A stretch of 64,000 nucleotides of DNA from an uncultured Candidatus Saccharibacteria bacterium (lineage in GTDB: Bacteria > Patescibacteriota > Minisyncoccia > Phycocordibacterales > UBA9973). Under the pieces are notes generated by a model, which had not been told where the DNA came from, made no database searches, and was given only the letters and a program-made list of their open reading frames with translations. Position numbers and translations under genes: made by a program. The stretch covers positions 2,072 to 66,071 of the forward strand of contig CAZUZL010000005.1 in the NCBI GenBank assembly GCA_964625065.1, given 5' to 3'. Below, piece after piece: positions 34,147 through 56,256 of this stretch. The number at the start of each line of letters is the position of its first letter. Within the stretch, counting starts at the first letter, position 1.

Positions 34147-34230
34147 TATAAAAAGGACAGTGTGTACTGTCCTTTTTATATATGTGTAAAAGTGCTTGAT
34201 GTGTCAAAAAACTAGTAGTAAAATAAAAGC

Positions 34231-38326: not shown

Positions 38327-39187
38327 ATGAAAAACAACTACACTAATTCAAATAAAAGTATTATATCAGAAAAAGATTCTGGTGCAGTTTCAAAACAACA
38401 AGATGGTTCTGTACTACCTACTTCATGGAACCCGGTTTCTACTTGGTACGACGAATACCTACAAAAATCTAATACACTACAGAGCGAAGTTATATTACCA
38501 AACCTATTACGTATGTTAGGTATCAAAAAAGGCGACAGTATACTGGACGTAGCCTGTGGCCAGGGTTATTTTACAGAACGTTTTGCACAACTTGGCGCAA
38601 ATGTATACGGCACAGATATATCTAAGGAACTTGTTGCCATTGTAGAAAAAAATGCCAAGAAACAAAACCTAAATATAAACTACCGCATACTACCAGCACA
38701 CAAGGCACCACACCTACCAGACATGCGCGTAGAAACTATTACAGTTGTATTAGCTTTTGAAAACATAGAAAACATTGCCGACACATTAACCGAAATGAAC
38801 CGTGTGTTAGTTCCAGGTGGCCGTGTGTTGATAGTGCTTATGCACCCAGCTTTTCGTGTACCACAGGAAAGTTCTTGGGGTTATGACACTGAACGTAATG
38901 TACAGTACCGCACAGTAGAACGCTATTTGTCTGAAGCAACATATAAAATAGACATGCACCCAGGCAAAGGCGGTAAAAAACATATTTCAACAGGGGACAT
39001 AACACTTTCATTCCACCGTTCAATGCAGTGGTATATGAAGCATTTTGCCAAGGCTGGTTTTGTAATGTCACGTTTAGAAGAATGGATATCACACAAGGAA
39101 AGCAATGTTGGTCCACGCAAACTTGCCGAAGACCGCGCCCGCAAAGAAATACCAATGTTTATGTGTGTAGAACTGAAGAAGATCTAA
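38327..39187 (+). CDS. Class I SAM-dependent methyltransferase
   Basis: Motif I ILDVACGQGYF; post-I DIS; motif II VLVPGGRVLI. Confidence 0.8.
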   Translation: MKNNYTNSNKSIISEKDSGAVSKQQDGSVLPTSWNPVSTWYDEYLQKSNTLQSEVILPNLLRMLGIKKGDSILDVACGQGYFTERFAQLGANVYGTDISKELVAIVEKNAKKQNLNINYRILPAHKAPHLPDMRVETITVVLAFENIENIADTLTEMNRVLVPGGRVLIVLMHPAFRVPQESSWGYDTERNVQYRTVERYLSEATYKIDMHPGKGGKKHISTGDITLSFHRSMQWYMKHFAKAGFVMSRLEEWISHKESNVGPRKLAEDRARKEIPMFMCVELKKI

Positions 39188-39221
39188 TAACTAAAACTCC
39201 TGAGAAATCAGGGGTTTTCGT

Positions 39222-39250
39222 TTGACAAAATGTAATAATGGGTGTATAGT
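39222..39250 (+). promoter_or_regulatory. Island promoter motif TTTGACAA-N17-TATAGT (copy upstream of ORF 39274)
   Basis: TTGACA at 39222-39227, 17-nt spacer, TATAGT at 39245-39250. Related copies are at 40344-40373, 39728-39753 and 43569-43599. Confidence 0.45.
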
Positions 39251-39273
39251 AAACTTCTAAAAAAGTTCTTAAA

Positions 39274-39672
39274 ATGAAAAAGTTTACTACATTCCTATTG
39301 TCCGCAACATTATTTGCGTTAGTTTTACTTCCGGTTGTTTCGGTTCATGCCCAGAAATCTTCCAATGTATGTGTGGATTCCACATTCCAACTTGTACGTA
39401 TCGACGATCGAATTTTCGAAATTATTATAAACACTAGTGTAGCCACTAATACCATTTCTGATTACGAAAAAAAGTTTGTAGTTATCAGTGACACACTTGA
39501 TGCTGCAGAGATTCGAAAAGATTGGGGAACATACTATGATTCAAAAAAACAATTAGCACTCATGATGGATGAACTAAATGCATTATTAATCGACATGAAT
39601 AATCAAAAGAAAGAAATGTTGTCTTTGTATGATCGACGGAACTATCTAATTGCTTGGTTGCATCATAAATAA
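39274..39672 (+). CDS. Hypothetical secreted protein (132 aa)
   Basis: Signal peptide MKKFTTFLLSATLFALVLLPVVSVHA; AT-rich island. Confidence 0.4.
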   Translation: MKKFTTFLLSATLFALVLLPVVSVHAQKSSNVCVDSTFQLVRIDDRIFEIIINTSVATNTISDYEKKFVVISDTLDAAEIRKDWGTYYDSKKQLALMMDELNALLIDMNNQKKEMLSLYDRRNYLIAWLHHK

Positions 39673-39776
39673 TAAAACAATGTTGAGTTTTTTAAAGCCT
39701 TTGTATTTAATATGAAGGCTTTTTAGTTTGACAAAATCTGTAAAAAATATAGTCTGAATGTAGATTAAACTATATT

Positions 39777-40208
39777 TTGCACATGAAGAAGCATAAATAC
39801 CCTCGTGAAATGGTGGACATAATTGTGGCTGATAAAGATTATTTTTTGTTGTTTTTTGCAAGTTTGTATTTAAAAACAAACGATATATTTTATTTACCAA
39901 AACTAAGGAAAAATGGTGACTACACCATGAAGTGTCCGATACATAAGGAAAGAACCCCATCACTAAGAATAAATGCAAAAACTAATTTATTCAAATGTTT
40001 TGGTTGTGGCCGTTCAGGTAGTAACATACACCTTATTGAGGAAGTTAATAAAATTTCGTTTGTGCAGGCAATACGATATGCCATACAACTAAAAACACCA
40101 CAGCAAAAAGTAGACTTGAACCAAACTAAAATAATATTTAGTTCTGCTGAAAAAGACTACCCACAAAAAGAATCAGATCCGGATGACAATTACGATCTGC
40201 CATTTTAA
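39777..40208 (+). CDS. Stand-alone DNA-primase-type CHC2 zinc-finger protein (no TOPRIM or primase catalytic domain)
   Basis: CPIHKERTPSLRINAKTNLFKCFGCGRSGSNIHLIEEVNKISFVQAI matches the DnaG zf-CHC2 region (compare the window's own dna[31 protein letters not shown]). The true start may be the internal MKCPIH. Confidence 0.55.
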   Translation: MHMKKHKYPREMVDIIVADKDYFLLFFASLYLKTNDIFYLPKLRKNGDYTMKCPIHKERTPSLRINAKTNLFKCFGCGRSGSNIHLIEEVNKISFVQAIRYAIQLKTPQQKVDLNQTKIIFSSAEKDYPQKESDPDDNYDLPF

Positions 40209-40238
40209 AAACCCGAACACTAGTGCTCGGGTTTTACA
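40209..40238 (+). terminator. Rho-independent terminator
   Basis: aaaacccgaacactagtgctcgggtttt. Confidence 0.6.
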
Positions 40239-40343
40239 TTATTGCGAATCCTTAGTCGTGGGATTGCCGTTTATGTTCTAATGGCGACAAGGAGCAATAT
40301 CTGGATACTATCAATAATTTTAAAGTAAATCAATGTGCAGTGT

Positions 40344-40373
40344 TTGACAACTCTATGAATATTTTTGTATAGT
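40344..40373 (+). promoter_or_regulatory. Island promoter motif TTGACA-N18-TATAGT upstream of ORF 40398
   Basis: TTGACA at 40344-40349 and TATAGT at 40368-40373. Confidence 0.4.
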
Positions 40374-40397
40374 GAAATCTAACAAAAGTTCTGTGTT

Positions 40398-40925
40398 ATG
40401 AATCTAAATAGGAAAGCACCCGGCACTGAAAAGTTTACTTGTTTTGAAATAGTCGACAGGCGTTTCGACATAGTAAAAAATGAAATCACCACTTCTCTTA
40501 GTCTATACGAAGAAAGCTTTGATTTTAAGAATGACATTAGCTGTAAAAAGCCTCTAACTAAAATACTGAAAAATTTTAGTCGGCGGTTCTACCCAAATCA
40601 GGCATTAAGTATTGATACATATGAAAGTTTCAAATACTTGTTTCTGATTTCTGAAGTCAATTATTTTTACGTAACACTATGTTTAAAATTGGATTTAAAC
40701 AACAACCCAACTTTAAACATTTACCAAGCGTTCAACAGTGGTAAGCCATTTATTTTCGAGGAAGAAAAGCCGATTTTTAAGGCTTTTAACTACGAATATG
40801 GGTATTTTTTTAACCCGTATGAATTAAAATTTGAAGTCAGGGAGGCCGAAAATTTAAAGCTACCTGAAGACTTAGAAAAGTTGTGCGTACCACTGATTAC
40901 CAAGGTTAAATCTTTGGTAAATTAA
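40398..40925 (+). CDS. Hypothetical protein (175 aa)
   Basis: ORF in the AT-rich island with a promoter motif upstream; no recognisable domain. Confidence 0.35.
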   Translation: MNLNRKAPGTEKFTCFEIVDRRFDIVKNEITTSLSLYEESFDFKNDISCKKPLTKILKNFSRRFYPNQALSIDTYESFKYLFLISEVNYFYVTLCLKLDLNNNPTLNIYQAFNSGKPFIFEEEKPIFKAFNYEYGYFFNPYELKFEVREAENLKLPEDLEKLCVPLITKVKSLVN

Positions 40926-40976
40926 ATTTTTAAAATCTAGAACAAGAACGCCAGCAGTTTTAATTGCAGGTGTTTT

Positions 40977-41585
40977 TTATTTTTCAGAAAGTTTTTTCAA
41001 TATTTTTGGTATTTGTTTAAAATCTTTCAGTAGTATTGCACGCATACCACCGTTATATAGTGCAGCAGCAGGGTGGTATAGGGGTAGAAAATGTGTGGTT
41101 TTAAGTTCTGTAATTACTGAAGTATTTTCTGTGCCTTTATATTTTTCAGTATCTATTATTTTACCGTGTGCATCAGATATACTAAGTTCCGGAAAAAAGC
41201 TGTTCAATGCATGTCTACCTAAAAACACAATTACGTCTGGTTTAATGTAATTTAGTTCGGCAACTAACCATGCACGGCATTGTTGTTTTTCGGTGGGTGT
41301 TGGGTCGCGGTTCTCGGGTGGGCGGTATTTAACTGTGTTGGTTATGTATACATCGGCCCGGTCCATTTTTATAGACTGCAACATTTCTGCTAAAAACTTG
41401 CCCGCAGCACCGACAAAAGGCACACCTGTTTCGTCTTCTTTTTTACCTGGGGCTTCGCCTATAAAAACCACGCGTGCCTTTGGGTTACCGTTACCAAACA
41501 CAGCTTGTTTAGCTGTGTTTTTTAGTTCGCATTCGCAAACGCTGTCGTAATATGTGTGTAGTTTATGTAGTGTAGTAAACTGCAT
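40977..41585 (-). CDS. Uracil-DNA glycosylase, family 4
   Basis: GEAPG motif (VVFIGEAPGKKEDETGVPFVGAAGKFL) and C-terminal HPAAALYN. Confidence 0.85.
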   Translation of the reverse strand: MQFTTLHKLHTYYDSVCECELKNTAKQAVFGNGNPKARVVFIGEAPGKKEDETGVPFVGAAGKFLAEMLQSIKMDRADVYITNTVKYRPPENRDPTPTEKQQCRAWLVAELNYIKPDVIVFLGRHALNSFFPELSISDAHGKIIDTEKYKGTENTSVITELKTTHFLPLYHPAAALYNGGMRAILLKDFKQIPKILKKLSEK

Positions 41586-41679
41586 AGGGTAATTATAGCA
41601 TTATAAAACAATGGTTTTAATGTATTGACTATAAGGCATAAATATGCTATAATGGAAGGAAGTTTACAGTTATTTGAAA

Positions 41680-41760
41680 ATAGTAAATTGTTGTGATTAG
41701 TTTGTCCAAGTCTCTATATTATTGGGTATTTGGACAAACTAATCAATTAAACAACAATTT
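41680..41760. repeat. Long imperfect inverted repeat (MITE-like or operator-like) upstream of ORF 41775
   Basis: gattagtttgtccaa at 41695-41709 pairs perfectly with ttggacaaactaatc at 41730-41744. The flanks (aaattgttgtg / caattaaacaacaattt) extend the repeat imperfectly. Confidence 0.5.
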
Positions 41761-41774
41761 AAATTAACCACAAA

Positions 41775-43505
41775 ATGAAAAGTTTTACTTACCTACTTCG
41801 AGGATTTACATGTCTTTGGATTGTATTCGCTGGCAACAGTGTCTTAGCACAAGGTGCTGTAAAAGATACATTTGATTTTTATCAATATGATTCTTTTAAG
41901 CACAATGATTCTATAGATTTTATCGGTTTTCCGATACTTGAAAACAGTGATGGAAGCTATTCAAAATTAGTTTCCTATGGGATGAATAGGGATAAATACC
42001 TTTTTCGTTATGATTCAACAATGCAATTTCTTGACTCAACTGTGATAGAAAACTATGAAGCGGGATCAAATTATAGAGTTGGAGGCATAACCTATATGAA
42101 AAGAAACACCATAGGTTACTTGATCACTAACATGATAGGTATATATCAATATGATTCTTCTAATCAGATTGTTTGGAAAATATTTTTGAATTATAATCTT
42201 GAATCAGTCACAACTACACCAAATGGGTATGCTGTGATTGGAACAAAGGTTTCGTCTTGGGGAAATACGGGCTGGGGGACTAATATGGATACATTGTGTA
42301 AAATAGTTAGCCATATTAGTTTTTCCGGCAACCTACTTTGGGAGCAGAAATATAGAGTTCTGATTGATACACCAATCAATTATTACGGCTGGTATGAAGA
42401 TGGAATTATCTATAATCAAAATAAAATTTATTTTGCCTACATGGATTCAACTGAACAAAGATCAAATACATGGACCCCATCTTCAGTGGTAGTAAAAATC
42501 GATTTGTCTGGAAATACAGTTTGGCAAAAACACATAGATATTTCTGCTGGAACTTTCAAAAAAAATTCCAAAGGCATTTTCCTTTTTGGAAACGAAGAGG
42601 ACACCACAAATACGTATAGTACATACCGCATGTATAAATTAGACACCAGTAATGGCAATGTTAATTTATATTTGAGGTATCCTAATTGGGGCGGGTTATT
42701 TCATTATCATGATACTTTATGGCTACGTGTAATAAGACAAAATTACTGGGTTGCTGCCCAAAATAAAACAATCATTACAATAGAAATAATTAATATTTTG
42801 GGTGTCGATAGTGTTCAGTTGTATTATACATCAGATTATGTAAAGTTAACCGATACAACTATTAATCCTTATGGTCCGTACCCTATTTACATGGATTCAA
42901 AAGAAAACTTACTTACTAGTCTATTTGTAACAAAACACTTAAATTATTATTCGGAACTCATAGGAACTATTTTTTGTAAATTTGTTCTAAGAAAGGACAC
43001 CGTTAGTGTTCTGCCTATTAAACTTATAACATTCACTGGAATGTTACGGGGTGATGATGTTCAATTAAACTGGACTACTGCCACTGAAACAAATAACGAT
43101 TATTTTGAAGTGGAGAAGAGCCTCGATGGTAAAAGTTTTACTAAGATAGGTTTTGTAAAAGGTGCAGGCAACAGTATGAATGTTCAGAAATACAATTACA
43201 TTGATGTATCTGCAAACAATGAAGTTTTGTACTACAGACTAAAACAAGTTGACTATGATGGAAATTTTTCTTATAGCAATATTGTTGTTGTAAAACAAAA
43301 TAAAAGTTCTGTTAAACTGTACCCAAACCCATTCGAAAACCACGTTACTGTTTATGGTCATGGCGACATTGTAATTACCGACATACTTGGAAAAATTTAT
43401 TTTTCTGGCACTGTCGGCAATGTGCAAACCATAGACTGGCCTACTGGTGTGTATTTGGTTCAGTGTATGATTAACGGGGAAGTAAAAAAGATTGTTAAAA
43501 ACTAA
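41775..43505 (+). CDS. Secreted protein with a Bacteroidetes-type T9SS (Por) C-terminal sorting domain
   Basis: Signal peptide. C-terminus reads ...VKLYPNPFENHVTVYGHGDIVITDILGKIYFSGTVGNVQTIDWPTGVYLVQCMINGEVKKIVKN, the Por_Secre_tail signature. Confidence 0.75.
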   Translation: MKSFTYLLRGFTCLWIVFAGNSVLAQGAVKDTFDFYQYDSFKHNDSIDFIGFPILENSDGSYSKLVSYGMNRDKYLFRYDSTMQFLDSTVIENYEAGSNYRVGGITYMKRNTIGYLITNMIGIYQYDSSNQIVWKIFLNYNLESVTTTPNGYAVIGTKVSSWGNTGWGTNMDTLCKIVSHISFSGNLLWEQKYRVLIDTPINYYGWYEDGIIYNQNKIYFAYMDSTEQRSNTWTPSSVVVKIDLSGNTVWQKHIDISAGTFKKNSKGIFLFGNEEDTTNTYSTYRMYKLDTSNGNVNLYLRYPNWGGLFHYHDTLWLRVIRQNYWVAAQNKTIITIEIINILGVDSVQLYYTSDYVKLTDTTINPYGPYPIYMDSKENLLTSLFVTKHLNYYSELIGTIFCKFVLRKDTVSVLPIKLITFTGMLRGDDVQLNWTTATETNNDYFEVEKSLDGKSFTKIGFVKGAGNSMNVQKYNYIDVSANNEVLYYRLKQVDYDGNFSYSNIVVVKQNKSSVKLYPNPFENHVTVYGHGDIVITDILGKIYFSGTVGNVQTIDWPTGVYLVQCMINGEVKKIVKN

Positions 43506-43523
43506 ATATAAAATTTAGTAATA

Positions 43524-43556
43524 AAGCCTGATCGTAATTGACCAGGCTTTTTTTGT
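43524..43556 (+). terminator. Rho-independent terminator
   Basis: agcctgatcgtaattgaccaggct followed by ttttttg. Confidence 0.55.
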
Positions 43557-43637
43557 GTAAAATAAACTTTGACAAACATGTCTAATATATGATATAAAAT
43601 AATAAATATAAATTTTTTCACTTCTAATTTTACTACC

Positions 43638-44015
43638 ATGAAAATATTAATTTCTTTATTTTTTGTAATTATGTTGGCCATTAGTCCACTGTCTGTAAAG
43701 GCACAATGTGGGTTCCGATTTTCAGAATACATATTAAACGAAAACACTGCACCTGTTGCAGTTGATCAAGTTAGTACTACTTTCAATCCAGAAGTTTTGT
43801 ATACACAGTCAATTTCTGTGTACCCAAACCCTTTTGCGGACAAACTTTTCATTACTACTGATAAAGAGCAGTCAGTTATAATTACTGATGTAACAGGGAA
43901 ATGTGTTTTCAGTGGTACAGTCAATAATACAGCACTAAACACAAGTCTATGGACTTCGGGTCTGTATATAATCCGTAGCACAGACGGTAGAGTACAAAAG
44001 TTCTTAAAAGAATAA
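43638..44015 (+). CDS. Small secreted protein with a T9SS C-terminal sorting domain
   Basis: Signal peptide, then ISVYPNPFADKLFITTDKEQSVIITDVTGKCVFSGTV...SGLYIIRSTDGRVQKFLK. Confidence 0.7.
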   Translation: MKILISLFFVIMLAISPLSVKAQCGFRFSEYILNENTAPVAVDQVSTTFNPEVLYTQSISVYPNPFADKLFITTDKEQSVIITDVTGKCVFSGTVNNTALNTSLWTSGLYIIRSTDGRVQKFLKE

Positions 44016-44035
44016 TTCTACATTAGTGTGAATTT

Positions 44036-44068
44036 AAAAACCGCTTATATAATATAATGCGGTTTTTT
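44036..44068 (+). terminator. Rho-independent terminator
   Basis: aaaaaccgcttatataatataatgcggtttttt. Confidence 0.6.
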
Positions 44069-44204
44069 GTATACCTGTGGATAACCCAGAGGTTTAACCT
44101 CTGTGAAAAAGAGGTTGTGCCATGCCCTGTAGTGAAATTTTATTACCATTAAACTTAAAAAAGCGATACTTTCAAAAATTTCTACTACGGGGTATAATAC
44201 CCCC

Positions 44205-44435
44205 ATGTCTATGTTAAAGAATTTTTTGATGAAGAAGATGCTGAAAAGCCAGTTAAAAGGCATTCCAGAAGCGGAGCAAGACCGTATTATTACTATGGTT
44301 ACAGAAAACCCTGAATTATTCGAGAAAATAGGTAAAGAAGTCCAAGAAAAGGTAAAAGGTGGCATGAACCAAATGGAAGCCACCAAGCGTGTAATGGACA
44401 AATATAAGTCGGAAATTGAGAAAGTAATGAAATAG
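44205..44435 (+). CDS. Hypothetical small K/E-rich protein (76 aa), probably leaderless
   Basis: TATAAT at 44193-44198 lies 6 nt before the ATG. The stop codon overlaps repeat-family-2 copy A. Confidence 0.4.
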   Translation: MSMLKNFLMKKMLKSQLKGIPEAEQDRIITMVTENPELFEKIGKEVQEKVKGGMNQMEATKRVMDKYKSEIEKVMK

Positions 44436-51546: not shown

Positions 51547-53226
51547 ATGACGTCTGCAGTTACCCAGATAAAGGAACGACTTGGTATTGTCGAAGTCATT
51601 TCAACGTATATTGCGGTTAACCAGGCGGGTAGACAGTTTCGTGCAAGGTGTCCTTTCCATTCAGAAAAAACAGCCTCGTTCTACATATCACCAGAAAGAA
51701 ATTCGTACCATTGTTTCGGTTGTAGTAAAGGTGGCGACATTTTTACATTCGTCGAAGATATGGAAGGTGTAACTTTCAAAGAAGCATTAAAAATTCTTGC
51801 TGACCGTGCAGGTGTAGTACTGGACGACTATGTACACACAGTAGACGACACAGCGGTACTGTATTCTATATTAGAAAAGTCTAAACAATATTTTGTTAGC
51901 CAAAATATAGAAGCTTCAAAAAAATATGTATCAGACCGAGGTATAACACAAAAAACTACTGAACATTTTCAAATAGGGTATGCCCCTAACGAATGGCGTA
52001 GTTTAGTTGAACACCTGTGTAAAAACGGTTTCAAAGATGCAGACATTGTTAGGTCTGGCATGGCCATAGAAACAGAACGTGGTATATACGACCGTTTCCG
52101 TGGGCGTGTAATGTTTCCGATAAACGACACACAGGGCAGGGCAGTTGGTTTCTCAGGGCGTATACTACCAGTGTACGATGTGCCTGGTAAAAGCGGGGAC
52201 AAACCAGCCAAATACATAAATTCTCCGGAAACAGATTTGTACCATAAATCTACAATACTGTATGGTTATGACAAAGCCAAAAACGCATTGCGCACCAGTG
52301 GGTATGCAATTGTGGTTGAAGGTCAAATGGACTTGGTTCTGTCGCATCAGGCTGGGTTTGAACAAACTTTAGCTGTATCAGGTACCGCATTAACTAATAC
52401 CCACCTTGATCTGATAGGTAGGTTTACAAAGAAAATTTTATTTTCTTTTGACGGCGACGAAGCTGGTATAAAAGCATTAAAACGCAGTGTAGAAGAAGCA
52501 CTAGCTAAAGACTTTGACATAAGGGTTGTAAAAGTTCCAGTAGGTAAAGACCCGGCAGATATTATTTCTACAGACCCCGAAGAATGGAAAAATATAGTAA
52601 GTCAGTCTACATCTATAATAGAATACTTGTTACTACACTATGCAAAAAAACATACAGATATTCGTGAATTCAGAAACATAGTAGACAAAGAAGTCTTGCC
52701 TTATGTTAGGTCTATAAACAAATCTATAGACCGTGCGCACTTTATAAACTTAGTTTCCAGAGCTGTAGATTTGCCCGACGCTGTTATAGCAAAAGCCGTA
52801 CAGGAAATAAGTTTAGCGCCCCGTGCTGTAGAAAACGACTTACCTAAAAAAGAAAACCTTTCTGCTGAAACCATACTGTTAGGTTTAATATCTTTAGAAA
52901 AAGAATCGTACCCATTACTAAACGGCGTTTCAATAGAAAAACTGTTTAGCCAGTATATGGACCTGTCAGTAGACGAATGGAAAATAACAATGGAATCTGT
53001 CGATGCGGGTTACGCAAGTTCAGTTGCAGAATATTTGTTGCTACAAACCGAAGACCACGCAATGCAGTTTGTATCTGACAATGTAATGAAGGTTGCAGAA
53101 AAAAGGTTGTTCCAAGCCCTGTCGCACTTAAAAAAACAAGGTTTGGGTACACCAGAGGAAATGCATTTGTTTACAGACCTGACTCGACGGGTCGACAATA
53201 TTAAAAAAGATCGTCATAATGTATAA
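51547..53226 (+). CDS. dnaG: DNA primase DnaG
   Basis: CHC2 zinc finger [11 protein letters not shown]...[11 protein letters not shown], the RNA-polymerase domain, and the TOPRIM motifs EGQMD and DGDEAG. Confidence 0.9.
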
Positions 53227-54598
53227 TATGAAATCAAAATCAACAAAAAAGATCGTAAAAAAACCAGCCCGACAAAGTCATTCTGGCGGGGTTGTTAAAA
53301 AACCTGTAAAAAAGCCAGCCCGACCGAGTCATTCTGGCGGGGTTGTTAAAAAAACAGCACCTAAAAAAGTTGTTAAAAAAACAGTTGCAAAAAAACCAGC
53401 CCGACCGAGTCATTCTGGCGGGGTTGTAAAAAAACAACCAGCTAAAAAAATAGCGCCTAAAAAACCTGTCCGAACTACTGGCGGAGTTGTTTCAAAATCT
53501 AATTCTAAAAAAACAAAAGCACAACTTACAACAGAACTGTTAGAAAAACAATCAAATATTTTAGTCGAAAAGGGTAGAAAGCGAGGTTTCATAACCTTCG
53601 ACGAAATACTTAAAACTTTTCCTGATATTGAAAACAATGTTCTGTTTTTAGACGAACTTTATGAAAAGCTTTCAACTGTAGGTGTCGACGTACTAGAAGG
53701 TGGTAACTTGCTAGATGTTGACGCTGAAGTAAAAGAAATAATTACCGGCAGACACCATGACCCGTCTTACGATTCTATACAAATATACCTTAAGGAAATA
53801 GGTCAATACCCGTTGATATCTTCTGCAGAAGAACGCAACCTAGCAAAACGCATCGAAGTGGGCGACAACGAAGCTAAAAATTTGTTGGCACGCGCAAACT
53901 TGCGTTTGGTTGTGTCTATTGCTAAAAAATACCAAAACCGCAGTGCAGACCTATCTTTACTTGACCTGATACAGGAAGGTAACATAGGTTTGTTCAAAGC
54001 CGTAGAAAAGTTCGACTGGCATAAAGGTTATAAATTCAGTACATATGCAACATGGTGGATACGCCAATCTATAACTCGTGCATTAGCCGACCAGTCTAGA
54101 ACAATACGTATACCTGTGCACATGGTTGAAACTATTTCTAAATACAAACAAGTTTACCGACGCCTTTCACAGGACCTAGGCCGCGAACCACTGGCCGAAG
54201 AAATAGCTACAGAAATGGGTGTTGAAGTTGAAAAAATTCATGTTATCGAACAAATCAGTCAAGAAACAACATCACTAGAAAAACCAATAGGTGACGACGA
54301 AGACAAATCTACACTAGGCGAATTTATTCCTGATGAAAAAATTCTACGCCCAGACCAAGACGCTTCACGCCGTATACTTTCTGACCAGATACACGAAGTT
54401 TTGGCAGAACTTTCACCGAAGGAACAAAAGATTCTAGAAATGCGTTATGGTTTACACGACGGTGTACAACATACATTAGAAGAAGTAGGTAAAGAATTTG
54501 GTGTTACTCGCGAACGTATTCGTCAGATCGAAGCCAAAGTCCACGACAAACTTCGAAGTAATGAAAAAATAATGCGCTTAAAAAATTATTTTGATTAA
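53219..54598 (+). CDS. rpoD: RNA polymerase sigma factor RpoD (sigma-70) with a Lys-rich N-terminal repeat region
   Basis: Regions 1.2 to 4 are present ([53 protein letters not shown]). The N-terminus has three copies of KKPAR(Q/P)SHSGGVVKK. Confidence 0.9.
53264..53423 (+). repeat. Three tandem copies of a GC-rich mini-element inside the 5' end of rpoD (ccagcccgac[a/c][a/g]agtcattctggcgggg at 53264-53291, 53315-53342 and 53396-53423)
   Basis: Near-identical 28-mers spaced 51 and 81 bp apart, in frame, each encoding KKPARxSHSGGVV. They are related to the pyrG and uvrD elements. Confidence 0.75.
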
Positions 54599-54610
54599 AA
54601 TACATAGAAC

Positions 54611-54651
54611 AAACAAATTCCCCACCAGTCAGACTGGTGGGGAATTTGTTT
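54611..54651. repeat. REP-like perfect palindrome, copy 1 (aaacaaattccccaccagtcagactggtggggaatttgttt)
   Basis: Perfect palindrome. Near-identical 31-bp cores occur at 55361-55391 and 56144-56174. Confidence 0.85.
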
Positions 54652-54668
54652 AGTGATATAATATTAAT

Positions 54669-55361
54669 ATGGGAACAAGAAAATTTCCACTTTGCGATAA
54701 TGAATATTTTCATTTATATAATCGTGGAAATAGCAAACAAAAGATATTTTTAGACGGTCAAGATTATGAGCATTTTATAAAGTGCATATTTGTTTGCAAT
54801 TCATATAAAAAGTATAAATTTAGAGACGATATTGTTGATCTCGGCATTGATGCTTTTGAGTTCGATAGAGCAGAGACAATCGTCTCTATAGGCGCATGGG
54901 TTTTAATGCCAAATCACTTTCATATCTACATTATAACGGCACATCAGTCAGATCGGTGGAAAGATTTAGAACGTAATAGAATTTCTGAATTTATGCGTAA
55001 AGTCTTAACTGCGTATAGTTTATATTTTAATAAAAAATATGAAAGAACCGGCGGTTTATTTGAAGGTGTATTTAAATCAATACACATTGGAAATGATAAT
55101 CAAGCAAAATATCTATTTTCTTATATACACTTAAATCCAATAAAGCTTATTCAAAAAGACTGGAAGGAAGTAGGAACAATAGATGTTAAAAAAGCACTAA
55201 AATTCTTAGAAGGTTATAAATGGAGTAGTTACATGGACTATAAGGGTATTATAAGGAAAGAAAATGCTATTTTAAACACAGAGTATTTTCCAAAATATTT
55301 TTCTGATATTAAAGATTTTGATAGGGAAATATTAAATTGGTTAGAATATAAAGAATTATAA
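54669..55361 (+). CDS. REP-associated tyrosine transposase (RAYT; IS200/IS605-like Y1 HUH transposase)
   Basis: HUH motif LMPNHFHIYI; catalytic Tyr region YLFSYIHLNPIK; YNRGN...IF; C-terminal WSSY. Flanked on both sides by the REP palindrome. Confidence 0.75.
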   Translation: MGTRKFPLCDNEYFHLYNRGNSKQKIFLDGQDYEHFIKCIFVCNSYKKYKFRDDIVDLGIDAFEFDRAETIVSIGAWVLMPNHFHIYIITAHQSDRWKDLERNRISEFMRKVLTAYSLYFNKKYERTGGLFEGVFKSIHIGNDNQAKYLFSYIHLNPIKLIQKDWKEVGTIDVKKALKFLEGYKWSSYMDYKGIIRKENAILNTEYFPKYFSDIKDFDREILNWLEYKEL

Positions 55362-55391
55362 ATTTCCCACCAGTCTGACTGGTGGGAAATT
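55361..55391. repeat. REP-like palindrome, copy 2 (aatttcccaccagtctgactggtgggaaatt)
   Basis: 31-bp palindrome between the RAYT and HNH genes. Confidence 0.85.
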
Positions 55392-55441
55392 GAAAAATAA
55401 AAATTGCTGCATATTTTAAAATAATATGATATGCTGCGACT

Positions 55442-56137
55442 GTGAAGAAAATTTTAGACGATATTCTAAGTTATAGAGAAATGTGTGATTCTGAGAAAAC
55501 CCAAACTATGCAACGTGGGATGAATTTTCGCATGAAACCAACATATTCTGTTATTTTGATGTCCCAAAGATCAAACGCCCCTTACTCAGATAAGGTTTAT
55601 AAAGATGGAGTAACTATTGAATACGAAGGTCATGATGTTTCAAGAAAATACTCAGAAAATCCAAAAGAACAAGATCAGCCTGATAAATTACCAAGCGGTA
55701 CTATAACACAAAATGGTTATTTTATAAAAGCTATTAATGAATATAAAGAAAATAAAAGCAAACCAGAATTAGTAAAAGTTTATGAAAAAGTATTTTCAGG
55801 GGTGTGGTCATTAAAAGGATATTTTGATTTGATAGACTATAAAATCATTCATGATGGAAAGAGAAATGTTTTTCGTTATATTTTAAAATTGTCTGACAGA
55901 AAAGAAAATTCTAATATGGGAGATATTAACATTGGACACACTAGATTAATTCCATCAGAGGTTAAAAGAGAAGTTTGGAAAAGGGATCAAGGAAAATGTG
56001 TTTTATGTGGTGATTCTAAAAACCTCCACTTCGATCATGACTTACCTTTTTCGAAGGGTGGTACAAGTCTTTCTTCAAATAATGTTAAATTGCTTTGCAT
56101 GAAGCATAATTTACAAAAATCGGATAATATCCAATAA
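55442..56137 (+). CDS. HNH endonuclease with an unassigned ~170-aa N-terminal domain (possibly a PUA/SRA-like modified-DNA reader; candidate modification-dependent restriction enzyme)
   Basis: C-terminal HNH motif CVLCGDSKNLHFDHDLPFSKGGTSLSSNNVKLLCMKHNLQKSD. The N-terminal domain was not recognised with certainty. Confidence 0.65.
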   Translation: MKKILDDILSYREMCDSEKTQTMQRGMNFRMKPTYSVILMSQRSNAPYSDKVYKDGVTIEYEGHDVSRKYSENPKEQDQPDKLPSGTITQNGYFIKAINEYKENKSKPELVKVYEKVFSGVWSLKGYFDLIDYKIIHDGKRNVFRYILKLSDRKENSNMGDINIGHTRLIPSEVKREVWKRDQGKCVLCGDSKNLHFDHDLPFSKGGTSLSSNNVKLLCMKHNLQKSDNIQ

Positions 56138-56143
56138 ATTATT

Positions 56144-56174
56144 AAATTTCCCACCAGTCAGACTGGTGGGAAAT
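56144..56174. repeat. REP-like palindrome, copy 3 (aatttcccaccagtcagactggtgggaaatt)
   Basis: Identical core to copy 1. Confidence 0.85.
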
Positions 56175-56256
56175 TCTATGTAAGGGGAGGCCGGTAGGGG
56201 GTATTTATTTTGTTCATTTTTGTGCATTGCAATATTTGTTATGGTATAATTTAGCT

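Follow-up and report, generated by a model that had tools for sequence, protein, structure and literature searches.

The closest known counterparts of the proteins described here are the type-A CTD cargo proteins of the Bacteroidota T9SS (TIGR04183/PF18962; RgpB, SBBP-propeller P0010, P0109). The features in common are a Sec signal peptide at the N-terminus, with Gln in the +1 position, a cargo domain that varies (degenerate SBBP-like repeats in our ctd576), a widespread pre-CTD beta-sandwich, and a seven-strand CTD with the motifs YPNPF, D..G[KR], G.Y and K..K, which scores above the curated HMM cutoff. However, the CTD genes of the present study are encoded in a CPR genome, with no T9SS gene in the window (the whole 64-kb stretch of DNA analyzed), their products are only 35-53% identical to Bacteroidota cargo, and they have sigma70-type promoters and lie in a strain-variable cassette locus. 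T9SS-dependent export, CTD cleavage and A-LPS attachment are not to be assumed for the CPR proteins.

The second known kind comprises flexible genomic islets, or replacement islands, that code for variable surface proteins, as well as polymorphic proteins in which one end is constant and the other variable. As in those, the chromosomal position is identical in all strains, the conserved flanks would be the arms for recombination, close strains differ in gene content and N-terminal domains, and dS is much above that of neighbouring core genes. In contrast, the present islets, A and B, measure 1.8 and 2.6 kb, which is very small, and contain no immunity, integrase or mobility genes, and here it is the C-terminal secretion-type CTD that is constant and the N-terminal cargo that varies.

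Organization of the locus

The backbone of the window is that of a CPR/Paceibacteria genome, in which SecD and SecF, serving Sec export, are separate genes, and a Pfam scan of about 45 window ORFs detected no T9SS or outer-membrane family; both the CPR-like, non-Bacteroidota host and the lack of T9SS machinery genes in the window had been anticipated in the original prediction. A single island of about 5 kb had also been proposed. However, blastn of the window against the congeneric genome L002 revealed the order methyltransferase-UDG-hyp76-rpoB without any of the five islet genes; thus, there are two flexible islets flanking a conserved UDG gene, not one island (Table 1). At the position of islet A, L002 has 41 bp, and at that of islet B, 148 bp; the islets are two indels (gain or loss) relative to L002. 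The UDG gene, kept in L002, belongs to the backbone and is of family 4 and host-like composition, as expected. In hyp76, identity to L002 is 95% (dN/dS 0.047), and the DnaA-box-like sequence is a conserved backbone element.

Table 1 Features of the locus (positions in the window)
Feature	Position	Strand	Evidence or remark
Islet A (hyp132, zinc-finger protein, hyp175)	39182..40973	+	blastn vs L002; GC 0.323
Sigma70-type promoter of hyp132	39222..39250	+	TTGACA-N17-TATAGT
hyp132	39274..39672	+	small secreted protein; signal peptide end ...VHA/QK; no known family
Hairpin terminator 3' of hyp132	39694..39722	+	
Promoter-like site upstream of zinc-finger gene	39728..39753	+	TTGACA-N14-TATAGT; short 14-nt spacer
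Stand-alone CHC2 zinc-ribbon protein	39783..40208	+	141 aa from ATG 39783; profile match
Palindromic terminator after zinc-finger gene	40208..40235	+	inverted-repeat search
Sigma70-type promoter of hyp175	40344..40373	+	TTGACA-N18-TATAGT
hyp175	40398..40925	+	no signal peptide; no known family
Family-4 uracil-DNA glycosylase (UDG)	40977..41585	-	177.7 bits, cutoff 125.3; GC 0.394
Islet B (ctd576, ctd125)	41603..44192	+	blastn vs L002; GC 0.322
Promoter upstream of ctd576	41625..41653	+	TTGACT-N17-(TG)cTATAAT; kept among strains
Inverted repeat in 121-nt leader of ctd576	41694..41745	+	perfect, 16 nt; 20-nt spacer
ctd576 signal peptide and strain-specific N-terminal region	41775..42989	+	degenerate SBBP-like beta-propeller repeats
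ctd576 pre-CTD beta-sandwich	42990..43310	+	LPIKL..NW.TATETNNDYFEVE.S.DG...YYRLKQVDYDG
ctd576 T9SS type-A CTD	43311..43505	+	HMM; YPNPF, D..G[KR], G.Y, K..K
Hairpin and T-run terminator 3' of ctd576	43523..43554	+	
ctd125	43638..44015	+	signal peptide ...VKA/QC, ~35-aa linker, T9SS type-A CTD; no cargo domain
DnaA-box-like TTATCCACA	44076..44084	-	right edge of islet B, upstream of rpoB
hyp76	44205..44435	+	conserved small backbone gene directly upstream of rpoB; L002 comparison
Third AT-rich strain-specific islet	54598..56216	+	GC 0.303; missing from L002

If a piece of Bacteroidota DNA had been joined to, or binned with, the CPR contig by mistake, this would account for the taxonomically unexpected domain and the local drop in GC. 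However, both islets share one contig with the backbone genes that enclose them (methyltransferase, UDG, hyp76 and rpoB), and the locus was found again, with differing gene sets, in at least five other assemblies. The adjacency of UDG and CTD genes, together with the two outer junctions, recurs in assemblies of other samples and strains, namely L083 (NCBI GCA_964368315.1), L084 and L085 (ERR14064714 and ERR14064713) and L087 (ERZ27248701), and the contigs of ERZ1426828, likewise of other origin than the window, also have UDG beside CTD genes and bridge both flanks. In addition, a distant CPR contig of 90 kb (L082) has a CTD gene within its ribosomal operon. Since several other assemblies span the junctions, a mis-join, which had been suspected previously, is excluded, and an artefact of assembly is scarcely credible and refuted for practical purposes.

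The segment had been described as richer in AT than its flanks. This holds for total GC, which amounts to 0.323 and 0.322, respectively, for the segments left and right of the UDG gene, but not for the UDG region, which has the 0.390 of the rest of the window, nor for GC3, which is equal in island (0.27-0.36) and backbone genes (0.27-0.33). The amino acids FYINK make up 36% of the island proteins versus 27% of the backbone proteins, and 22% of the island is non-coding; the AT-richness is thus due to amino-acid composition and non-coding DNA, not to foreign codon usage. As for the promoter motif reported to recur at four genes, TTTGACAA is present at all four (39221, 39727, 40343 and 43568), these being four of the seven that the window contains (binomial P about 0.001), the window-wide number being at chance level (6.4 expected). 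However, full TTGACA-N17/18-TATAGT sites are found only at 39222 and 40344 (two found, 0.1 expected), and the site at 43569 lacks TATAGT. The promoter and leader of hyp132 are repeated at 40344-40394, and L084 matches both copies.

Islet A and the stand-alone zinc ribbon

Among the strains compared, hyp132 is present only in that of the window, and homologues of hyp175 (172-177 aa) adjoin the UDG gene in sister strains, with a dN/dS of 0.10 and saturated dS. The ORF of the zinc-finger gene was listed from a TTG at 39777 (143 aa), versus the ATG of Table 1. Its product had been regarded as a truncated primase finger of phage or plasmid type. It does contain a CHC2 DnaG zinc ribbon only (PF01807, 66 bits; phrog_360, 58 bits), with no TOPRIM domain detected in the profile search; however, it is not truncated, as the members of its family are all 138-143 aa in length and retain the finger ligands and the C-terminal tip down to 45% identity. 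The layout is a conserved N-terminal 40 aa, the finger (C51/H54/C72/C75), a variable linker and a C-terminal tip with invariant acidic D[LS]PF. The full DnaG of the host is encoded at 51547-53226, and its finger is only 26% identical to that of the stand-alone protein. As the gene is lineage-conserved, syntenic and under purifying selection (dN/dS 0.085-0.20), and no close phage, plasmid or viral relative was found, it is not a phage remnant, and an origin from a plasmid is not supported. No Bacteroidota relatives at all were found for the zinc-finger and hyp175 genes.

The four-ligand CHC2 zinc ribbon is the same as in the zinc-binding domain of DnaG primase and in small phage CHC2 proteins (phrog_360, a 133-aa profile). 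Unlike DnaG, the protein has neither an RNA-polymerase (TOPRIM) domain nor a helicase-binding domain, and unlike both, it has the family-specific N-terminal 40 aa and an SSB-like tip; furthermore, its gene lies on the chromosome of a CPR genus, with conserved synteny. The C-terminal tip of SSB (DDDIPF/DDDLPF) is an interaction hub (PMC5872125, PMC3632105), and the zinc-finger protein resembles SSB in its variable polar linker followed by acidic D-[LS]-P-F at the extreme C-terminus. However, SSB binds DNA by an OB fold, where the present protein has a zinc ribbon, and partner binding of the latter is putative. A probable role of the protein is docking onto proteins of replication or repair, and it would not be a dead primase. 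The small genes of islet A are resident in the lineage, and each has a promoter, a leader and a terminator to itself.

Islet B: N-terminal exchange and probable origin of the CTD module

Both proteins of islet B end in T9SS sorting domains, as predicted: in the HMM check with TIGR04183 (cutoff 23), ctd576 (ORF 41775-43505, 576 aa) scored 33.8 bits and ctd125 (ORF 43638-44015, 125 aa) 37.8 bits. With PF18962, the scores were 42.9 bits for ctd125 and 24.2 bits for ctd576, just below the gathering score of 27. In the predicted structure of ctd576, the CTD has seven strands (pLDDT above 90; top PDB match, PorU), and the N-terminal domain has a pLDDT below 50 and gives no usable model. The pre-CTD beta-sandwich has no Pfam model and is common to all 120 of 120 T9SS-cargo matches. 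Between sister strains, ctd125 is 57-68% identical, with dN/dS of 0.32-0.45.

Homology between strains stops directly after the -10 box at 41653 and returns at 43052; the exchanged stretch extends from just 3' of the conserved promoter to the start of a constant C-terminal module, consisting of the pre-CTD beta-sandwich and the CTD. In L083, L084 and L085, the N-terminal region of ctd576 is replaced by unrelated sequence, and three distinct N-termini are joined to a module of 83-85% identity. The dS of islet genes ranges from 0.33 to above 1.6, versus 0.13-0.15 for the adjacent UDG gene in the same strain pairs, and therefore indicates allele import or old polymorphism. The conserved promoter and the C-terminal module may provide the arms of homology with which cassettes are exchanged through homologous recombination, by which the N-terminal 'business' domain would be swapped between strains while promoter and module stay. 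A different view is that all islet genes are decaying remains of old transfers that have no function, the zinc finger being a truncated primase, since they are small, AT-rich, without known families and patchily distributed among strains. This is very unlikely, as the ORFs are intact in every strain, with no in-frame stop, all islet genes are under purifying selection (dN/dS 0.085-0.45), the zinc-finger family preserves its length, ligands and tip, and every gene keeps its own promoter and terminator.

The CTD gene of L082 encodes the same module with 56-58% identity and is located between rpsN and rplE, inside the ribosomal-protein operon, with its own sigma70-type promoter and terminator; the VirD4-like protein of this genome is only 40% identical to that of the window. 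The CPR modules are reciprocal nearest neighbours, with a bootstrap value of 48% for a single-origin clade. A narrow HMM did not detect the module in a further 80 rpoB neighbourhoods from Paceibacteria (1.5 Mb). All non-CPR relatives with an organism name or informative context are from Bacteroidota or of diderm type, their genes being neighboured by those for TonB receptors, TolC, OmpA and more T9SS cargo. Because the nearest of these outside relatives are all of this kind, descent of the module from Bacteroidota T9SS cargo is the best inference, and transfers from Bacteroidota to Paceibacteria have a published precedent (PMC12455944). In this respect the proposed horizontal acquisition from Bacteroidetes stands, but it was neither recent nor that of a single island. 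A recent island from a Bacteroidota donor would explain the lower total GC, the CTD, pre-CTD domains and SBBP-like architecture typical of Bacteroidota cargo, and the absence of the genes from congeneric L002. It is nevertheless quite unlikely and largely refuted by the two separate indels around a backbone gene, the distribution of the genes over several diverged strains with saturated dS, the failure to find an integrase, tRNA or att-type repeat at the islets, and the zinc-finger and hyp175 genes, which lack Bacteroidota relatives. Furthermore, native GC3, canonical sigma70-type promoters (as in L082), dN/dS of 0.09-0.45 and a best non-CPR identity of 53% or less show that the genes are neither recent imports nor relics.

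Possible role of the CTD proteins

CPR are generally regarded as lacking an outer membrane and a T9SS, and this is assumed here for the whole genome; therefore, the CTD is most likely no T9SS export signal in its producer. The reading that we favour, with moderate confidence as a whole, is that of domesticated, Bacteroidota-derived surface or secreted CTD proteins that act independently of T9SS. Its anatomical and evolutionary parts are highly probable: two small flexible islets, separated by the UDG gene and located just upstream of rpoB, of which islet B would encode Sec-exported proteins with the constant module of beta-sandwich and CTD, apparently domesticated, as the codon composition is native, the promoters are of sigma70 type and selection is purifying. 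More tentatively, the CTD may form, independently of T9SS, the constant portion of an extracellular protein that otherwise varies, and possibly serve in retention at the surface or in adhesion upon contact with the host cell. CTD genes in CPR hint at old gene flow from Bacteroidota and at a new, T9SS-independent use of the domain.

Alternatively, the CPR bacterium may live on a Bacteroidota host whose PorV, SprA or PorU attachment complex recognizes the CTD-tagged proteins, so that the CTD works as a signal in trans for display on the host surface or docking of the epibiont. The functional CTD motifs described for T9SS (PMC11285876) are invariant in all CPR copies, including two residues important for recognition by the T9SS of P. 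gingivalis, Gly in the beta3-beta4 loop and Lys in beta7, and this would fit continued T9SS interaction equally well. The signal peptides of three proteins have Gln at +1, in accordance with the Bacteroidetes-specific Q-rule (PMC5837995); crude rates from the same home-made predictor are 51% at Bacteroidota-type loci versus 17% at Paceibacteria loci. Variable cargo on a constant CTD resembles a delivery tag, ctd125, with only a CTD, could be a decoy or competitor, and Bacteroidota have been proposed as partners of, and donors to, Patescibacteria. However, there is no known route for a protein exported by an epibiont to the host periplasm, where the CTD is recognized; CTDs are poorly interchangeable even among Bacteroidota species (PMC11285876), and the conserved residues are also structural. 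We thus regard such exploitation of a host T9SS as unlikely.

Another improbable explanation is an unrecognized CPR envelope or export system with the CTD as sorting signal, analogous to T9SS or to sortase-like attachment in a monoderm. The conserved motifs are in its favour, as is the occurrence, in two distant CPR lineages, of a constant C-terminal module under purifying selection, but no candidate machinery lies beside any of the loci, and the module is rare, as the rpoB neighbourhoods above illustrate. Elsewhere in the window, the third islet of Table 1 encodes a weak IS200-like Y1 protein and an HNH endonuclease.

Type IX sorting domains in a Paceibacteria backbone

C-terminal domains (CTDs) of the type IX secretion system (T9SS) are seen as hallmark features of Bacteroidota and of the FCB group, and as making no sense without an outer-membrane translocon. 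Such domains had been predicted on two ORFs of the locus, ctd576 and ctd125 (576 and 125 aa), and the profile-HMM check with TIGR04183 upheld both (33.8 and 37.8 bits, respectively; curated cutoff 23). With PF18962, ctd125 passed (42.9 bits) and ctd576 scored 24.2, slightly under the gathering score of 27. The domains lie at the extreme C-terminus, ending at residue 576 of 576 in ctd576 and at residue 124 of 125 in ctd125, and N-terminal Sec signal peptides were predicted in both proteins with a home-made predictor and by eye. The ctd125 protein consists of a signal peptide, a short linker and the CTD, and nothing else. Save for one 95%-identical copy, the relatives of ctd576 are confined to its C-terminal ~170 aa. 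The module joins two units, namely a beta-sandwich bearing the signature LPIKL..NW.TATETNNDYFEVE.S.DG...YYRLKQVDYDG, for which there is no Pfam model and which was found in 120/120 among the matches listed, and the CTD itself.

In the AF2 model, residues 410-576 of ctd576 form two sandwiches with pLDDT above 90. The top Foldseek match in the PDB was P. gingivalis PorU (6za2, E = 6e-5), a T9SS protein bearing a CTD, followed by generic FN3/Ig tandems; a sequence search of the PDB gave a weak CTD match only (7pzj, E = 0.065). The CTD (residues 513-576) is predicted to have seven strands (pLDDT 88-96), and the type-A CTD is a compact seven-strand Ig-like beta-sandwich (PMC11285876). In P. gingivalis, a Gly of the beta3-beta4 loop and a Lys of the last strand are important for secretion (PMC11285876). 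The CPR CTDs keep both of these residues throughout; D27, G30, K64 and K67 are invariant among them (7/7), and G539 is nearly invariant in an alignment of 121 sequences. The N-terminal 400 aa of ctd576 were modelled with pLDDT below 50, too low to claim a fold, and contain degenerate SBBP-type propeller repeats; thus, the architecture is the same as that of Bacteroidota cargo such as the homologous protein P0010. The predicted cleavage sites of hyp132 (an islet protein), ctd125 and plausibly ctd576 expose Gln, which is the Bacteroidetes 'Q-rule' (PMC5837995). By our crude predictor, and on tiny numbers, the Q rate was 51% in Bacteroidota-type loci and 17% in Paceibacteria loci, and we regard the resemblance as a hint.

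Judged from its core genes, the window backbone is that of CPR / Paceibacteria. The rpoB product is 63-98% identical to those of 80 Patescibacteria or Paceibacteria genomes, and the gene order rpoB-rpoC-dnaG-sigA is common to the window and these relatives, in agreement with the original prediction of a CPR-like host. The prediction of separate secD and secF genes was also correct. The remaining window contains ordinary CPR housekeeping genes together with those for a VirD4-like ATPase, an LTD/PKD surface protein and an ECF sigma factor with its anti-sigma. As had been claimed, there is no T9SS machinery in the window: no T9SS or outer-membrane family was found among the ~45 scanned ORFs of the 64 kb, and PorK/L/M/N, SprA, PorV, PorU and PorZ were missing from the regions adjoining the related loci examined.

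Two islets around the UDG gene

Features of the locus and of related contigs
Feature	Contig	Coordinates	Strand	Remarks
Site lacking the extra L002 segment	window	34154-34183
NDH-2 gene	window	37106
Islet A	window	39182-40973		GC 0.323; 41 bp in L002
hyp132 gene	window	39274
Zinc-finger gene	window	39783-40208	+
hyp175 gene	window	40398
Family-4 UDG gene	window	40977-41585	-
Islet B	window	41603-44192		GC 0.322; 148 bp in L002
End of inter-strain homology	window	41653
Inverted repeat	window	41694-41709 / 41730-41745		in ctd576 leader
ctd576	window	41775-43505
Restart of homology (module start)	window	43052
ctd125	window	43638-44015
TTATCCACA	window	44076-44084	-	634 bp upstream of rpoB
hyp76	window	44205-44435
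rpoB	window	44710
dnaG	window	51547-53226
Third AT-rich segment	window	54598-56216		GC 0.303; 100 bp in L002
Extra segment	L002	2570-3780		~1.2 kb
Palindrome of two TTATCCACA copies	L002	9419-9459		20-bp stem
Segment with CTD protein gene	L082	9452-11705		544 aa

The closest genome, the congeneric L002, has an rpoB product 98% identical to that of the window and DNA identity of about 80-85%. Its gene order is NDH-2, methyltransferase, UDG(-), hyp76 and rpoB, and all five genes of the supposed island are missing. By this comparison, the locus is two islets placed around a backbone UDG gene and not the single ~5-kb island originally proposed. The UDG assignment was confirmed by TIGR00758 (177.7 bits, cutoff 125.3), and the gene is kept in L002 and the sister strains with a dN/dS of 0.10-0.12. 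The ORFs exist as described, and the segments are indeed richer in AT than the flanks; the UDG region, predicted to be more host-like, has the same GC as the remainder of the window (0.390). However, the GC3 of the islet genes (0.27-0.36) matches that of the backbone (0.27-0.33). The low GC of the islets is explained by amino-acid usage (36% vs 27% for F, Y, I, N and K together) and by a coding fraction of only 0.78.

The islet genes occur in varying sets on contigs of sister strains. L083 (NCBI GCA_964368315.1) has hyp177, UDG, CTD proteins of 336, 125 and 431 aa, a 118-aa ORF and the beginning of hyp76. In both L084 and L085 (Logan ERR14064714 and ERR14064713), methyltransferase, hyp175 and UDG are followed by CTD proteins of 347 and 125 aa, and the order in L087 is zinc finger, UDG and a 430-aa CTD protein. 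Two ERZ14268xx contigs have methyltransferase, zinc finger, hyp172, UDG, hyp76, rpoB, rpoC and dnaG, without CTD genes. Since the junctions are reproduced with differing gene sets in other samples, every islet gene is patchy among related strains, and the suspicion of a mis-joined contig can be dismissed. The genes are intact in all strains compared (dN/dS 0.085-0.45). For the same strain pairs, dS was 0.33-0.43 in the C-terminal module, 0.55-1.0 in ctd125 and above 1.6 in hyp175, against 0.13-0.15 in the adjacent UDG gene. These values fit the import of diverged alleles or long-standing polymorphism, but not clock-like vertical divergence, and by these measures the islet genes are neither recent arrivals nor decaying.

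A classical genomic island, prophage or plasmid remnant was also considered and rejected. There is no tRNA near the islets and no flanking repeat besides a promoter-leader duplication, GC3 is native, and close viral, phage and plasmid relatives are missing. The PHROGs scan gave matches limited to the generic finger; PADLOC and PHROGs gave nothing specific for hyp132, hyp175 and the CTD proteins; and viral-contig scans with the zinc-finger protein and hyp175 gave no matches.

The zinc-finger ORF of islet A (143 aa) encodes a CHC2 DnaG-type zinc ribbon only (PF01807 at residues 43-104). It has no DNAG_N or Toprim match and does not classify as a DnaG-type primase; the complete host DnaG, with zinc-binding, DNAG_N and Toprim domains, is encoded elsewhere in the window. 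The original prediction was thus correct as to a stand-alone CHC2 finger but not as to its truncation, as relatives in five clusters have the same length (138-143 aa, 45-94% identity). A truncated primase is made unlikely by this kept length together with purifying dN/dS (0.085-0.20) and by the family's own N-terminus and tip. In the window protein and its relatives P0121-P0125, a family-specific N-terminus of 40 aa and all four zinc ligands are conserved, followed by a variable polar linker and an invariant acidic D[LS]PF end. This layout is similar to that of SSB, with its disordered linker and DDDIPF tip, through which DnaG and other proteins of genome maintenance are recruited (PMC5872125, PMC3632105, PMC3000357). 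Where neighbours are visible (P0121, P0124 and P0125), the gene lies after a methyltransferase gene and/or directly before UDG. The protein shares only 26% identity with the finger of the host DnaG, and it had no close phage, plasmid or viral relative in the searches made. Its synteny with UDG, its dN/dS and the lack of such relatives speak against the suggested phage or plasmid remnant. From the family conservation, the D[LS]PF end, the low identity and the missing phage or plasmid kin, we read it as a putative resident small DNA-binding adaptor. With its SSB-like tail, the zinc-ribbon protein also offers a minor lead, apart from the CTD proteins, into replication and repair in CPR.

Other strain-specific segments were observed. 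A third AT-rich one lies between sigA and the gene for a family-less 663-aa protein, and contains two ORFs, one of 230 aa that weakly matches an IS200-like Y1 transposase (18 bits) and one of 231 aa for an HNH endonuclease. In the opposite direction, L002 has another small flexible islet between the VirD4-like and LTD/PKD surface-protein genes, which is absent from the window.

Origin, exchange and possible role of the CTD module

The named relatives of the module are all Bacteroidota (Cyclobacteriaceae, Pontibacter, Crocinitomicaceae, Ferruginibacter, Ulvibacter and Bacteroidia). Genes neighbouring the closest metagenomic matches (those listed, a sample of which was classified) and the homologs P0016, P0022 and P0141 are of a diderm, metabolically rich type, with TonB-dependent receptors, TolC, OmpA, RND pumps, more T9SS cargo, molybdopterin synthesis and cytochrome oxidase. 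The metagenome scan gave nothing closer than 53% among the matches listed. A profile search with CPR CTDs only yielded 58 candidates, all short CTD-bearing proteins (possibly fragments); the sole informative name was Bacteroidia, and the longest contig had a diderm background. Bacteroidota are reported to be one of the commoner sources outside CPR of genes acquired by Patescibacteria, one recipient being a Paceibacteria MAG (PMC12455944). A Bacteroidota origin of the module is thus supported by its relatives. Of the predicted horizontal acquisition from Bacteroidetes, this part holds, whereas a recent single island does not agree with the native GC3, the two islets and the high dS.

One exception to the diderm context is P0004, the module of which is 56-58% identical and which is encoded on a 90-kb contig, L082 (JGI Ga0606628_0000067). 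Its ribosomal operon is of CPR type, with S5 followed directly by L15 without L30, and the gene for the Por_Secre_tail protein is inserted, in opposite orientation, between rpsN (S14) and rplE (L5). This gene has its own TTGACA-N17-TATAAT sigma70 promoter and a terminator, and its GC resembles that of the flanks. The organism is distant from that of the window, its VirD4-like protein being just 40% identical. CTD proteins, intact and under selection, occur in two CPR lineages that are far apart. Their modules are reciprocal nearest neighbours; as the bootstrap of the NJ clade that they form was only 48%, however, we do not claim a single acquisition. The module was found in 0/80 other Paceibacteria rpoB neighbourhoods (1.5 Mb, narrow HMM), and our literature search found no paper connecting T9SS CTDs with CPR.

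In the sister strains, the module (83-85% amino-acid and 90-95% nucleotide identity) follows N-terminal regions of two other, unrelated kinds (P0002 and P0003). In a conserved promoter, TTGACT-N17-TATAAT, the DNA homology between strains breaks off directly behind the -10 box; it restarts at the module start. The promoter and the module would then serve as homology arms for swapping the N-terminal cassette. An integron-like or site-specific cassette system was rejected, as neither an integrase nor an attC-like repeat is present and the breakpoints fall on ordinary conserved sequence.

The CTD genes are intact, under selection and each provided with its own promoter in a recombination-prone CPR locus. 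We conclude that bona fide T9SS-type CTDs were domesticated in a lineage expected to be without T9SS, inside a compact cassette-swapping locus. Since Patescibacteria are reported to have no outer membrane (PMC12102498), the CTD would not be needed for outer-membrane translocation. The CTD proteins would be exported by Sec, with SecD and SecF encoded in the window, and most plausibly the constant module would hold or present its variable N-terminal partner on the surface of the cell or where the cell meets its host. An alternative possibility, to which the CTD motifs retained in the CPR copies and the Q-type signal peptides would lend themselves, is that the CPR epibiont uses its CTD-tagged proteins, the CTD-only mini-protein included, on a Bacteroidota host, engaging the type IX secretion or attachment machinery there. 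The tagged proteins would be shown on the host surface, would tie the epibiont to it or would jam it, and the strain-swapped N-terminal cargo would track host variation. Taken as a whole, we consider this quite improbable; if true, it would identify the host of a Paceibacteria lineage as Bacteroidota. The presence of selected CTD proteins in CPR, if it holds, would be a molecular record of genes passing from Bacteroidota to Paceibacteria, and with it a testable clue to the epibiont hosts. It would also mean that a sorting domain is reused without its secretion system or, more provocatively, is turned on the host's system. Furthermore, a compact locus for swapping surface-protein cassettes in a streamlined genome would be an expected seat of host-range determinants.

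Expression signals and cis-elements

Each islet gene is its own cassette with a sigma70-type promoter, a leader (24-60 nt; 121 nt in ctd576), the ORF and a hairpin terminator. In the backbone genes NDH-2, UDG, hyp76 and rpoB, only 7-10 nt separate the -10 box and the ATG. The locus thus combines two kinds of expression signal: backbone genes with -10 boxes so near the start codon look leaderless, whereas hyp132, the zinc-finger gene, hyp175 and ctd125 have -35 and -10 boxes and leaders without an obvious Shine-Dalgarno sequence. The original prediction of a recurring motif followed by N14-18-TATAGT was correct in part. TTTGACAA was present at all four predicted positions, which are 4/7 of its window copies (P about 0.001), but the full TTGACA-N17/18-TATAGT occurs at only two of them (0.1 expected); of the other two, one has a 14-nt spacer and one lacks TATAGT. 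The promoter-leaders of hyp132 and hyp175 form a duplication that has diverged. L084 has just one copy, which links methyltransferase straight to hyp175, and therefore the repeat brackets hyp132 and the zinc-finger gene.

The long leader of ctd576 contains an inverted repeat, perfect over 16 nt and spaced by 20 nt, which may be an operator or an RNA hairpin; it is missing in the sister strains, the leaders of which are ~27 nt. The hyp76 gene encodes a lysine- and glutamate-rich protein of 76 aa without family assignment. It is always directly upstream of rpoB in this genus, and its conservation is very strong (95% identity in L002, dN/dS 0.047). The DnaA-box consensus TTATCCACA has one copy in the window. 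In a scan of 79 Paceibacteria loci there were 35 exact copies, of which 18, in 17 loci (including L006, L030, L031, L044, L047, L053, L055, L062, L064, L067, L073, L074, L076, L077 and L079), lie at most 700 bp upstream of rpoB, a zone that makes up 3.7% of the sequence scanned. In L002, two copies form a palindrome. Thus, TTATCCACA looks like a conserved cis-element upstream of rpoB.
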